A stretch of 7,152 nt of DNA from a virus (taxonomy: Duplodnaviria; Heunggongvirae; Uroviricota; Caudoviricetes). Each line of letters begins with the position of its first letter. The stretch's first letter is position 1. The stretch covers positions 1-7,152 of IMG/VR virus record IMGVR_UViG_3300030035_000037. One strand, written 5' to 3'. Under the pieces are notes generated by a model. It was not told the DNA's origin. It did no database searches and saw nothing but the letters and a program-made list of their open reading frames with translations. The position numbers and the translations under genes were made by a program. This document shows positions 3,247-6,282 of the stretch, one piece after another.

Positions 3247-3282
3247 GGAGTTTACTCACATCTGACAAAATCAATATAAACA

Positions 3283-3302
3283 GCCCCTCCGGAGAGGGGC
3301 TG
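3283..3302. terminator. Perfect 8-bp GC-rich stem-loop bounding the AT-rich island; possible terminator or mRNA 3' stabiliser for the cargo ORF
   Basis: AGCCCCTC cgga GAGGGGCT at 3283-3302, 37 nt after the cargo ORF stop; no clean U-tract on either strand. Confidence 0.35.
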
Positions 3303-3498
3303 GAGAGTGGCGCTATGTGCCATTGCATGGTGCCGGGTGCCTCCCGGTGAATTCAGTACCAGCACCTGAATCCGCGATTATCCCATATACCTACTCGCTG
3401 ATTGCCCCTCCGCACAGGGGGATTCACCATGCCAGTTTCTTTTAACAAACTCCCCGCAAACCAGACAACAGTCAACCGCCTGAATTGTGAGACATTTA

Positions 3499-3537: not shown

Positions 3538-3614
3538 TGGCGCGTTGTACTGGATTCGAACCAGTGACCGATTGCTTAGAAGGCAATTGCTCTGTCCGGC
3601 TGAGCTAACAACGC
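3538..3614 (-). tRNA. argO: tRNA-Arg, anticodon TCT (reads AGA)
   Basis: Manual fold of the minus strand: 7-bp perfect acceptor GCGTTGT/ACAACGC, D-arm GCTC..GAGC, anticodon loop CTTCTAA, T-loop TTCGAAT, encoded CCA. Gene symbol assigned only from the conserved ileZ-argN-argO order of Stx-type phages, recalled from memory. Confidence 0.9.
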
Positions 3615-3628
3615 AGGATACAGATAAT

Positions 3629-3704
3629 GAACCGCCTTCGGGGACCCGAACTCCGCGCAACCAGCTTCGAAGGCTGGCGCTCTTTCCTGATGAGCTAATG
3701 GCGG
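3629..3704 (-). tRNA. argN: tRNA-Arg, anticodon TCG; atypical (possibly divergent or degenerate)
   Basis: Manual fold: acceptor CCGCCAT/AAGGCGG (6 of 7 pairs), D-arm GCTC..GAGC, anticodon stem CCAGC/GCTGG with loop CTTCGAA, T-arm CGGAG-TTCGGGT-CCCCG (one A-C mismatch, G at the usually invariant A58), 3' TCA instead of encoded CCA. Exact 3' end is uncertain (3629-3631). Confidence 0.6.
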
Positions 3705-3711
3705 TATGTGA

Positions 3712-3787
3712 TGGTGGCCCTTGCTGGATTTGAACCAGCGACCTGGCGATTATGAGTCGCTCGCTCTCACCACTGAGCTAAAGGGCC
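3712..3787 (-). tRNA. ileZ: tRNA-Ile2 type, anticodon CAT (lysidine-dependent AUA decoder); a tool may call it tRNA-Met
   Basis: Manual fold: perfect acceptor GGCCCTT/AAGGGCC, anticodon loop CTCATAA, T-loop TTCAAAT, encoded CCA; overall very close to the recalled E. coli ileX sequence. Confidence 0.88.
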
Positions 3788-3836: not shown

Positions 3837-4886
3837 TCAAACGATTAAATCCTGAACTTCCCTGACTGTCTGCTCAAAACGTCCTGTCTCCAGTTCAACG
3901 CCAATCGCACGACGCCCGAGCGCCAGTGCCGCTTTTACCGTTGAACCCGACCCCATGAAAAAATCCGCAACCAGATCACCAGGACGACTGCTTGCGCTGA
4001 TTATCTGCTGCAGCATTTCTGCCGGTTTTTCGCACGGATGTTTCCCGGGATAGAACTGCACCGGTTTATGTGTCCACACATCCGTGTACGGCACCTGCGC
4101 CGTCACACCAAAATACCGCCGCAGATGTTTATATTCACTCTGCAGCTCCGCATACTGTCGGTTCAGTGAAGTATACGTATCCACCAGCTGGTGGTGGGGC
4201 TTTTCCAGTTCCCCCCGCTGATGCTTCTCTTCTGCCACCCTGGCAAACAGTGCCTGTAATTTCAGATAATCGCTTTCGTTCGGCAACTGCCACTGACTGG
4301 CACTGAACCAGTGCGACACCATGTTTTTCTTTCCTGTGGCATCTGCAATCTGTTTTGCCGTTATCCCCAGGGCCGCGCATGCATCACGAAAGTAAGAAAT
4401 CAGCGGGGCCATCACATGCTGTTTCAGTGCCCTGCCCTTCGCCTCATACCCGGCATCTTTCGGACGATACGGCCCCTGATAATGTTCCGCGAACAGAATG
4501 CGCTCTGTGGCGGGGAAATACGCCCGCAGGCTTTCCTTGTTGCACCCGTTCCAGCGTCCGGAAGGCTTCGCCCAGATAATATGGTTCAGCACACTGAAGC
4601 GTTCACGCATCATGATTTCGATATCAGATGCCAGGCGATGACCACAGAACAGGTAAAGACTTCCGGCAGGTTTCAGCACCCGCCAGAACTGCGCCAGACA
4701 CTGGTCCAGCCACTTCAGGTAATCATCGTCGCCCTTCCACTGGTTATCCCAGCCCTCAGGCTTCACTTTAAAGTACGGCGGGTCCGTGACTATCAGGTCA
4801 ACAGAATTTTCGGGTAACGACCGGATAAATTCCAGGCAGTCGGCGTTGATTAACTCACAACTGGATATTTTTACAGTATTAAGCAT
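3837..4886 (-). CDS. DNA methyltransferase, beta-class (motif IV before motif I), predicted N6-adenine specific; orphan (no cognate nuclease in window)
   Basis: 349 aa; SVDLIVTDPPY near the N-terminus (DPPY favours N6-adenine over N4-cytosine SPPY); AdoMet motif DFFMGSGST near the C-terminus; architecture of the N6_N4_Mtase family. Weak Shine-Dalgarno; a GATC overlaps the start region at 4887-4890. Confidence 0.9.
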   Translation of the reverse strand: MLNTVKISSCELINADCLEFIRSLPENSVDLIVTDPPYFKVKPEGWDNQWKGDDDYLKWLDQCLAQFWRVLKPAGSLYLFCGHRLASDIEIMMRERFSVLNHIIWAKPSGRWNGCNKESLRAYFPATERILFAEHYQGPYRPKDAGYEAKGRALKQHVMAPLISYFRDACAALGITAKQIADATGKKNMVSHWFSASQWQLPNESDYLKLQALFARVAEEKHQRGELEKPHHQLVDTYTSLNRQYAELQSEYKHLRRYFGVTAQVPYTDVWTHKPVQFYPGKHPCEKPAEMLQQIISASSRPGDLVADFFMGSGSTVKAALALGRRAIGVELETGRFEQTVREVQDLIV

Positions 4887-5026: not shown

Positions 5027-5050
5027 AAAAAAGCCTTCACTGCGGAAGGC
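5021..5050 (-). terminator. Rho-independent terminator after the small winged-helix-like ORF
   Basis: Minus strand GCCTTC cgcagt GAAGGC (5050..5033) followed by TTTTTTATTTGT (5032..5021); the ORF stop codon (5037-5039) lies inside the stem. Confidence 0.6.
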
Positions 5051-5234
5051 GTCTGTAACAACCGAACTGATAGTCTGCCAGACCCGCCATAACCAGCTGG
5101 GTCAGTATTAACTGGCAGCGTTCGCGTGAAAGGTAAGTATTCTGTGCAATCTCCCCGACTGTCGCCGGTTCGGTAACGCTTAATTCATTAAACACTACTC
5201 TGGCGGTTTCTGTCATATCCTGCTGTTTTAGCAT
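5037..5234 (-). CDS. Small hypothetical protein (65 aa) with a predicted winged-helix/HTH-like segment; possible DNA-binding regulator
   Basis: ATG at 5234 preceded by AAGGGA; ORF-track version 5037..5321 starts at a GTG and is less likely. Segment TVGEIAQNTYLSRERCQLILTQLVMAGLA has the pattern of a winged-helix recognition region (PapI/FaeA- or MarR-like); weak, pattern-only assignment. Confidence 0.45.
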   Translation of the reverse strand: MLKQQDMTETARVVFNELSVTEPATVGEIAQNTYLSRERCQLILTQLVMAGLADYQFGCYRRLPQ

Positions 5235-5354
5235 GTCTTTTTCCCTTTTCCGGTTAACGTGACACACCAATAACTCTTGTCGAAAAAGCCAGCAAGCTGA
5301 AAGACAGGTATTCACCGCCACCAGCGCGTTTACTGTACTGACGCGATTTCAGTC

Positions 5355-5378
5355 ATAAAAAACCCGCCAGGCGGCGGG
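5355..5378 (-). terminator. tR'-like Rho-independent terminator downstream of pR'
   Basis: Minus strand CCCGCC gcct GGCGGG (5378..5363) followed by TTTTTTAT (5362..5355). Confidence 0.7.
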
Positions 5379-5421
5379 GTGTAAAAAATCTTCTAACGTC
5401 AGGCATAAAACGCCCATCGTT
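5355..5421 (-). ncRNA. Predicted short pR' leader transcript (about 65 nt), analogous to lambda 6S RNA / the StxS sRNA of Stx phages
   Basis: Predicted start at A 5421 (7 nt after the -10) and tR' U-tract ending near 5355; contains an A/U-rich single-stranded stretch before the terminator hairpin. Existence inferred from promoter plus terminator only. Confidence 0.5.
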
Positions 5422-5455
5422 AGAGCAAATTTACCACAGATTCGGGAAAAATCAA
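5416..5455 (-). promoter_or_regulatory. Late promoter pR' (lambda-like) with extended -10 and promoter-proximal pause element; presumed Q engagement site
   Basis: Minus strand -35 TTGATT (5455..5450), 16-nt spacer, TGg-TAAATT extended -10 (5433..5428), then TGCTCT and AACGATGGG at +1 onward; the -10 plus AACGAT arrangement matches lambda pR' as recalled from memory. Lies 6-45 nt downstream of the Q stop codon. Confidence 0.65.
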
Positions 5456-5460
5456 CAACA

Positions 5461-6282
5461 CTATCGCGTTACCCTCTTTAACTGCCGCTCCGCCCATGCC
5501 TCTTCAATGTCAAACCGAACCACCAACGTATCGTAAAAGCGTTTCACTGATTTTTTCCACGTATCAAGCGTGATAGCACTCGTCACTTTGCATATGGCAT
5601 TAAATGCCTCCGTTGATGGTAGTCTTTCACAGCCACGACCACCACAACGCTGGCAGTCTCTGATAACAGGCATACCACGTTTTACCGACTCTTCACGATG
5701 AATGGCGACACCACGCCCACGGCAATCCTTACAGGCGGTGGAAACCTCACCCTTTCCGCCACACTCCGGACAGGCAACTTTTACCACCTCCCTGACTTTT
5801 TTCCATTCTTCCCAGTAAGACGGATACACACCTTTCGTACACTTTGCCCATACCGGCGGCTTACCATCCGGATACTGGACCTTGTTTGTAAAAACTACGC
5901 TTTCAATAAATTTTTCCCCATAGCAACAAGGGCACTGCTTTTTACTCGCTGCGCTGCGGGCATAATCCTCAAAAGCGTACGAAGCCATAATGCGCATCAC
6001 TACCGGTTTTATTTCTGCCGGGAGTTTTCTTAACGCCGCCACGCGATCACACCGACTGAGTGCATATTCTGTCAGCAATTCTGTTGCCCGCTCTCTGTCA
6101 TTCATACTAATGCCCATTTTCCCAAGGAACGCAGAAAACCCCATCTCAGCCCGATTCTGTGTCATGCCCTGCGCGGCCATCACATCAGTGATACTCAGCG
6201 CATCTTTCGACGTTGAGGCCGATGCATCAGTCAGGCCGGGGGATTTTGGGGAGTAGTATTTCGGTAAATCTTCCAGTTTCAT
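5461..6282 (-). CDS. Q: Late-gene antitermination protein Q, lambda-Q family, with an enlarged Cys-rich zinc-binding region
   Basis: 273 aa; blocks matching recalled lambda Q: YSPKSP, DVMAAQGM, ASYAFEDYARSAA, C-terminal LKRVTR; multiple CxxC pairs; located immediately upstream of the lambda-like pR'; start overlaps the rusA stop (ATGA). Confidence 0.88.
   Translation of the reverse strand: MKLEDLPKYYSPKSPGLTDASASTSKDALSITDVMAAQGMTQNRAEMGFSAFLGKMGISMNDRERATELLTEYALSRCDRVAALRKLPAEIKPVVMRIMASYAFEDYARSAASKKQCPCCYGEKFIESVVFTNKVQYPDGKPPVWAKCTKGVYPSYWEEWKKVREVVKVACPECGGKGEVSTACKDCRGRGVAIHREESVKRGMPVIRDCQRCGGRGCERLPSTEAFNAICKVTSAITLDTWKKSVKRFYDTLVVRFDIEEAWAERQLKRVTR

Follow-up and report, generated by a model that had tools for sequence, protein, structure and literature searches.

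A probable pR'/qut/tR' late-gene control cassette, with a predicted 65-nt leader RNA, downstream of a lambda-family Q gene in lambdoid prophages

The Q gene, its downstream promoter region and the late genes

We analysed a 7,152-nt stretch of DNA from a tailed-phage (Caudoviricetes) record, called the window below; the window features that we discuss lie on its minus strand. Positions 5461-6282 encode a Q antiterminator of 273 aa that belongs to the lambda Q family (Pfam PF03589, E 5e-51), and the open reading frame is intact. The protein aligns with lambda Q from first to last residue at 30% identity (BLASTP E 7e-38), with a strongly conserved N-terminal segment, and it matches the lambda Q structures 7UBM (E 3.8e-39), 4MO1 and 7UBJ. 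The sequence-only reading had placed a Q gene upstream of the promoter described below, and the Pfam, alignment and PDB matches all agree with it. In lambda Q, the N-terminal segment refolds into a nozzle at the RNA-exit channel (PMC9388147). Compared with lambda Q, the zinc-ribbon arm of the window protein carries an insertion of ~66 aa that includes two further CxxC pairs. The arm of lambda Q contacts the Q-binding element (QBE) and sigma region 4, so the insertion may alter the docking of Q. The inserted segment also yields a sub-threshold match to the DnaJ CXXCXGXG domain (Q residues ~120-215).

The Q gene ends with a TAG stop codon at 5463-5461, and a -35 hexamer, TTGATT (5450-5455), begins 6 nt past it. 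The 16-nt promoter spacer, TTTCCCGAATCTGTGG (5434-5449; also written TTTCCCGAATCTGTG), is a candidate QBE, and its 3' end forms an extended -10 motif, TGg, with the TG at 5436-5435. Next come the -10 hexamer TAAATT (5428-5433), a gap, TGCTCT (5427-5422), and a sigma-dependent pause element, AACGATGGG (5413-5421), made up of AACGAT (5421-5416) and GGG (5415-5413). All of the hexamers, the spacer, the gap and AACGAT had been picked out from the letters alone, and we found each of them on the minus strand as placed. A simple promoter scan of the window did not list pR', because 8 of the 12 hexamer positions agree with the consensus, against a threshold of 9 of 12, with the extended -10 TG uncounted; lambda pR' scores 9 on the same count. 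The window contains a single copy of the arrangement TAAATT-N6-AACGATGGG, for which shuffled sequences give an expectation of 0.01.

Further downstream, a terminator scan and the predicted fold both identify an intrinsic terminator, tR', at 5357-5378. It consists of the hairpin CCCGCC-GCCT-GGCGGG (5378-5363), in which all six of the six stem pairs are G:C and the loop is GCCU in RNA, and of a T6 run (5362-5357) that would give a U6 tail. This bears out the earlier claim of a terminator downstream of the promoter, with an RNA end ~65 nt from the start. Between tR' and the first late open reading frame lies a late-transcript leader (5235-5356), which is conserved in phage SfV, in Stx2a phages and in prophage Sp6 of E. 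coli O157:H7 Sakai. We propose that transcription of this leader would be expected only with Q present. A fold test of the same interval gave no signal (z 0.05).

The late genes in the window comprise a 65-aa open reading frame, a DNA methylase, three tRNAs, an STnc100-like RNA and a NanS-type esterase; the lysis genes would follow next in the late operon. The 65-aa product (5037-5234), a hypothetical protein in the annotations of related phages, has a weak TrmB-like winged-helix match, and a terminator-like hairpin (5050-5033) overlaps the end of its reading frame. An N6/N4 DNA methylase is encoded at 3837-4886 and a NanS-type sialate O-acetylesterase (DUF1737-SASA-DUF6645) at 785-2665. Both would be expected to be expressed only through Q-dependent read-through from pR'. 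The tRNA genes (3538-3787) are a Met-type CAT, which is annotated in Sakai as ileZ, tRNA-Ile, followed by Arg-TCG and Arg-TCT; ileZ-argN-argO is the usual lambdoid tRNA cluster 3' of pR'. Directly 3' of this cluster is an Rfam match to STnc100 (3272-3461; 132 bits, E 8e-30) that has its own terminator (3302-3281). In Stx phages, the stx genes occupy the position of this RNA, 3' of the tRNAs. In published RNase E-CLASH data, the STnc100-homologous region of Sakai Sp6 ('ECs1525 5'UTR/mRNA') is found in chimeras with RyjA and EcOnc40.

Comparison with lambda, related Q loci and database copies

The lambda region reads TTGACT-17-TAAATT-TGACTC-AACGATGGG. The window shares with it the -10 hexamer TAAATT, the 6-nt gap and an identical AACGATGGG at +1 to +9, and blastn aligns the two sequences with 87% identity over 31 nt that span the -10 and the initial transcribed region. 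The suggestion that the locus reproduces the -10 and initial region of lambda pR' therefore holds in both sequence and spacing. In both cases, a Q gene of family PF03589 lies directly 5' of the promoter, and since the window Q belongs to this family, we read the match to lambda pR' as homology and not chance. The resemblance is one of homology across the entire regulatory cassette. It extends to a predicted 5' hairpin closed by AACG(A)/(U)CGUU and, as predicted for the window, to a terminated leader RNA made without Q. There are also clear differences. Lambda combines a TTGACT -35 with a 17-nt spacer, whereas in the window the -35 is TTGATT and the spacer is 16 nt long and ends in an extended -10 TGn; the two spacers are unrelated in sequence; and the window Q has the zinc-ribbon insertion noted above. 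The window terminator ends at ~+65 and not at +194, so that the predicted RNA is a third of the length of lambda 6S RNA, and it lacks the orf-64 start. The blastn similarity between the window RNA and 6S stops near +27.

To what extent is this arrangement shared by other Q loci? A scan of relatives, with one genome per species, yielded 41 loci in Enterobacteriaceae that encode Q homologues with 38-97% identity, from about 20 genera including Escherichia, Shigella, Klebsiella, Enterobacter, Kluyvera, Silvania, Leclercia, Yokenella, Kosakonia, Phytobacter and Mangrovibacter. The closest is from E. albertii, with a Q that is 97% identical and an identical pR' region. The exact AACGATGGG stands six bases past a -10-like hexamer in 32 of the 41 loci, and a one-to-five-base variant occupies the same place in another 8; one locus (L033) is alone in having no recognisable cassette region. 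A G:C-rich terminator hairpin with a T-run, starting between about +25 and +47, is present in 40 of 41 loci (the terminators of L008 and L026 were read by eye). The RNAs predicted from these 40 loci are 48-79 nt long, with a median of 62.

Two promoter classes track two Q subclasses. Promoters of the class with a 260-276-aa Q, which includes the 273-aa window Q, share (C)TATTTAC-TTTTCCCGAATCTGTG-TAATTT, and those that accompany the 250-aa Q of the Qin/SfV type share TTGCA-TTTTCAAAAAATATGG-TA(A/G)GAT. We compared 27 distinct promoters of the 260-276-aa class, whose Q proteins are 54-97% identical to the window Q. Their -35 hexamers occupy the same position, with the consensus TTTACT, and the identity of the spacer (0.88) is similar to that of the hexamers (0.86 and 0.92) and higher than that of positions -6 to -1 (0.68). 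The stretch that leads from the Q stop codon to the -35 is unconserved in sequence across genera, and conservation drops again past ~+27, where the linker that precedes the terminator varies between lineages in length and sequence. Promoter spacers are normally not conserved, and the lambda QBE sits between -35 and -10. Because the spacer is conserved like the hexamers and lies where the lambda QBE does, we infer that it is the Q-binding element of this clade; its sequence is unlike the lambda QBE, and it is the conservation that makes it a candidate. The structure of the lambda Q-QBE complex has been described (PMC9388147).

Stx2a phages that have an unrelated 126-aa Q (PF06530, the phage-21 family) share the hairpin and a 120-nt leader with the window at 88% identity, and they have no similarity 5' of the hairpin, where the promoter and initial transcribed region are unrelated. 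A recombination joint is located at the terminator (window 5357-5378 and 5235-5356; L002 2490-2645). The promoter and pause element, together with roughly the first 40 nt of the RNA, travel with Q, and the terminator with the late-gene module.

Within E. coli, the element is common. A 131-bp segment (5340-5470) is found in 1684 of 5426 complete genomes (31%), with at least 99% identity in 799 records and up to four copies per genome, and the RefSeq E. coli genomes carry no RNA gene annotation over it. Near-identical copies follow ECs_1524 in Sakai prophage Sp6, where the predicted +1 corresponds to NC_002695.2 position 1,554,210 on the plus strand (RNA interval 1,554,210-1,554,275), and are also present in O157 strain F6294 and in the Stx2a phage Stx2_EH1910, 5' of stx2A. 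The gene order in Stx2_EH1910 is Q, cassette, small open reading frame, methylase, three tRNAs and stx2A. Compared with the window RNA, those of Sp6 and EH1910 have two substitutions in the hairpin, one each in the stem and the loop, and a U-tract that is longer by one base. Diverged copies of the 250-aa subclass lie 3' of Q in phage SfV and in K-12 Qin, where the Q gene is ydfT (quuQ); the predicted +1 of the Qin copy corresponds to NC_000913.3 position 1,642,422 on the minus strand, 3' of ydfT. All four of these copies (SfV, Qin, Sp6 and EH1910) resemble the window in Q clade, in the AACGATGGGC pause element and in a terminator 40-65 nt on, and SfV and Qin differ in Q subclass, in the spacer (TTTTCAAAAAATATGG) and in the linker. 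Among the four, the terminator is the only part that is annotated, and only in SfV, where the homologous hairpin is recorded as a putative rho-independent terminator. Complete phage genome records with the cassette are SfV, Evi, mEp460_ev081 and Stx2_EH1910.

Given this combination of Q family membership, promoter and pause elements and recurrent architecture, we consider it highly probable that the locus is a pR'/qut/tR' late-gene control cassette of a lambdoid prophage with a lambda-family Q. From the elements we infer promoter activity, a start site, a pause position, binding of Q to the spacer and efficient termination, which would work together as follows. The sigma-70 promoter pR' would fire 40 nt past the Q stop codon, and the non-template AACGAT (+1 to +6) followed by GGG would then re-bind sigma region 2 and hold the polymerase near +17. 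The lambda pR' pause is at +16/+17, and in the window U17/G18, with a G at -10 of the site, fits the elemental pause consensus and is a candidate pause site. A universal pause sequence has been linked to sigma-70-dependent pausing (PMC5001585). Without Q, the polymerase would leave the pause and stop at the hairpin and U6 (+44 to +65), releasing a 65-nt RNA. When Q is present on the conserved -35/-10 spacer, it would board the paused polymerase, and the Q-loaded polymerase would read through tR' into the late genes. Several features count against such a cassette: the promoter hexamers are weak (8/12), the spacer is unlike the lambda QBE in sequence, the CLASH cluster described below appears to start 5' of the predicted +1, and the terminator stem is just 6 bp long.

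The predicted short RNA and its possible roles

With a start at the first A of AACGAT, the position used in lambda, the RNA would run from 5421 to ~5357 and measure 65 nt. Its minimum free energy (MFE) is -21.9 kcal/mol (z -2.48), and the MFE fold predicts a 27-nt 5' stem-loop (+1 to +27; 5395-5421), a 16-nt A/U-rich single-stranded linker, AGAAGAUUUUUUACAC (+28 to +43; 5379-5394; also written AGAAGAUUUUUU), and the terminator. In the 5' stem, AACG pairs with CGUU and GGGCGU with AUGCCU. A 5' hairpin of the same kind, in a 23-nt or a 27-nt version, is predicted in almost all relatives and in lambda; within the 27-nt class, pairing holds for 94% of cells, and the 5' arm is the invariant pause element. 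A covariation test of this stem-loop came out no better than column shuffles, and we therefore treat the stem as a prediction. We propose that the 5' part is conserved because polymerase must pause and Q must load, and possibly also because the stem-loop shields the 5' end.

Published data from Sakai contain traces of this RNA. In the RNase E-CLASH tables of Waters et al. (PMC5286369), two entries labelled 'ECs1524 3'UTR' cover it; one of them, with six reads, consists of AACGATGGGCGTTTTATGCC and then oligo(A). Reads from the locus begin AACGATGGGCG, at the predicted +1 A. RNA from the locus is present in the cell and comes into contact with RNase E, and the reads include a class that starts at +1. 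The cluster coordinates appear to start ~7 nt 5' of the predicted +1, and since the base preceding +1 is a pyrimidine, RNase trimming of a longer transcript could also be the source of these 5' ends. One chimeric read joins AUGCCUGACGUUAGAAGA to ChiX/MicM, with a duplex energy of -7.1 kcal/mol and no replicate, and its 'overlaps Hfq-CRAC reads' flag is non-zero. Another single chimeric read links HnrS (EcOnc11) to the final 40 nt of the Q (ECs1524) coding sequence (L050 ~130-170). The sequence-only reading had predicted a short regulatory RNA here, likened to 6S and StxS. A terminated RNA of ~65 nt is consistent with the reads that begin AACGATGGGCG, and the likeness to StxS is one of analogy only.

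The RNAs that occupy similar positions help to frame this analogy. StxS is transcribed from pR' to tR' as a 258-nt RNA, from which RNase E cleavage yields a 74-nt form (Sy, Lan and Tree 2020, PMC7547250), and its Hfq binding and its targets rpoS and stx1B have been demonstrated (PMC7547250). Like StxS, the window RNA is positioned between pR' and tR', straight after Q in a lambdoid prophage and 5' of tRNAs and a toxin/moron region, and it is predicted to be a lysogen-made by-product of antitermination control. The two differ in sequence and in the Q protein that they accompany. The 144-aa Q associated with StxS in Sakai Sp5 is a PF06530 protein of the phage-21 family, while the window Q is PF03589, and we rejected homology with StxS on the grounds that a blastn comparison with the Sp5 Q-to-tRNA interval returned a 23-nt hairpin only (E 0.002). 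That hairpin, AACCCGCCGATGCGCGGGTTTTTTT, is a terminator-like structure at the Sp5 StxS locus (L051 770-795), ~45-70 nt past the Q933 stop; it resembles the window tR' hairpin (87% over 23 nt) and, by coordinate conversion, lies inside the 258-nt StxS precursor, near its 5' end.

HnrS (EcOnc10-12) is another RNA of this kind, a 66-nt multicopy prophage sRNA (PMC13502914). It is similar to the window RNA in size, in its origin from lambdoid prophages of EHEC and in ending with an intrinsic terminator. It differs in sequence (ATAACAATAATAATCTTCTACCCAATCAG...) and in location: in Sp10 it is encoded close to the lysis and terminase genes, on the strand opposite to the late operon, and not at pR'. 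With an HnrS sequence taken from the primer table of the preprint, we found no match in the window at up to 3 mismatches, and, given also the different location, we rejected identity. Lambda 6S itself is a 194-nt RNA that has been recovered with Hfq and several partners, with function unassigned (bioRxiv 10.1101/2024.10.31.621285). An Rfam cmscan over 5355-5455 gave no match at E values up to 1, and literature searches with ydfT sRNA, ECs1524, quuQ and the RNA sequence found no paper on the RNA.

We propose that the main identity of the short RNA is that of a terminated late-operon leader. It could have a second role, as a trans-acting Hfq-associated sRNA or sRNA sponge that is made constitutively in lysogens and functions like StxS. 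We regard this as possible but rather unlikely. The architecture is one typical of Hfq-dependent sRNAs, with a 5' stem-loop, a 16-nt A/U-rich stretch containing AGAAGA and U6, and a G:C hairpin with U6, and there are precedents at the same genomic position in StxS (PMC7547250) and in the Hfq-recovered lambda 6S (bioRxiv 10.1101/2024.10.31.621285). The Sakai RNase E-CLASH data, which include the RNA itself, the ChiX/MicM chimera and the non-zero Hfq-overlap flag, point the same way, as does the presence of the element in nearly a third of complete E. coli genomes. Against this, the linker, which would be the seed, varies in length and sequence across cassettes, conservation ends at ~+27, no conserved seed was found among homologues between +28 and the terminator, and no target came to light. 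The ChiX chimera is a single read of -7.1 kcal/mol that is absent from the replicate, and the duplexes predicted with ChiX (with a query sequence confirmed in part against the CLASH reads) and HnrS are no better than shuffles, of which 26% and 10%, respectively, do as well. The RNA has no Rfam match, our searches turned up no paper that names it, and it has no entry in the list of orphan Hfq sites for Sakai (Tree 2014, Table S2). This last absence is weak evidence, because that list left out sites within 100 nt of an open reading frame; StxS2 itself was dropped from it owing to a nearby downstream open reading frame (PMC7547250). The regulatory role is thus suggested by analogy, together with weak traces in vivo. 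A fuller version of the idea, in which the ~65-nt RNA would be a constitutive Hfq- and RNase E-associated prophage sRNA or sponge, with ChiX as a possible partner, found in about a third of E. coli strains and taking the place of StxS in Stx2a phages with a lambda-type Q, strikes us as doubtful.

Could the hairpin instead serve mainly to end the early-right operon, that is, the Q mRNA, with the promoter a relic in a decaying prophage and no discrete RNA? The weak promoter hexamers would fit, as would the CLASH label 'ECs1524 3'UTR', the apparent extension of the CLASH cluster a few bases 5' of +1 and the many copies in cryptic prophages such as Qin. However, conservation across genera covers the promoter, spacer and pause element but leaves out the interval from the Q stop codon to the -35, a pattern that a relic would lack. 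The Q gene is also intact in the window, and the cassette is carried by the complete phage records SfV, Evi, mEp460_ev081 and Stx2_EH1910. We consider such a relic very improbable. That the transcript is a tiny mRNA, in which the ATG inside AACGATGGG opens a 22-codon reading frame (MGVLCLTLEDFLHPAAWRVFYD), is scarcely credible: several third-position differences among relatives in the first eight codons (TGC/TGT, CTG/CTA, TTA/TTG, GTA/GTG) speak for it, but there is no Shine-Dalgarno sequence and a leader of just 3 nt, the pause element accounts for the ATG, and we rejected a small peptide on finding that the ATG is lost in L011 (CTG) and L035 (ATA) and that a stop codon closes the frame after 2 codons in lambda, after 6 in L023 and after 11 in L039, and that in other cases it stays open through the terminator.

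Implications for late-gene control and toxin output

The window thus appears to carry a known kind of late-gene regulatory cassette, of which this member and its widespread short RNA were previously uncharacterised. Across the enterobacterial loci compared here, leader RNAs of 50-80 nt would be the norm for lambda-family Q cassettes, and the 194-nt 6S RNA of lambda the exception. The spacers, conserved like a protein-binding site, offer candidate Q-binding elements for two Q subclasses. If the RNA had targets, it would be a widespread regulator expressed in lysogens, present in 31% of complete E. coli genomes. As a late-gene control element, the cassette would govern the timing of prophage late-gene expression. 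In at least one Stx2a phage it lies directly 5' of stx2A, and its promoter, pause site and terminator would therefore bear on toxin output.
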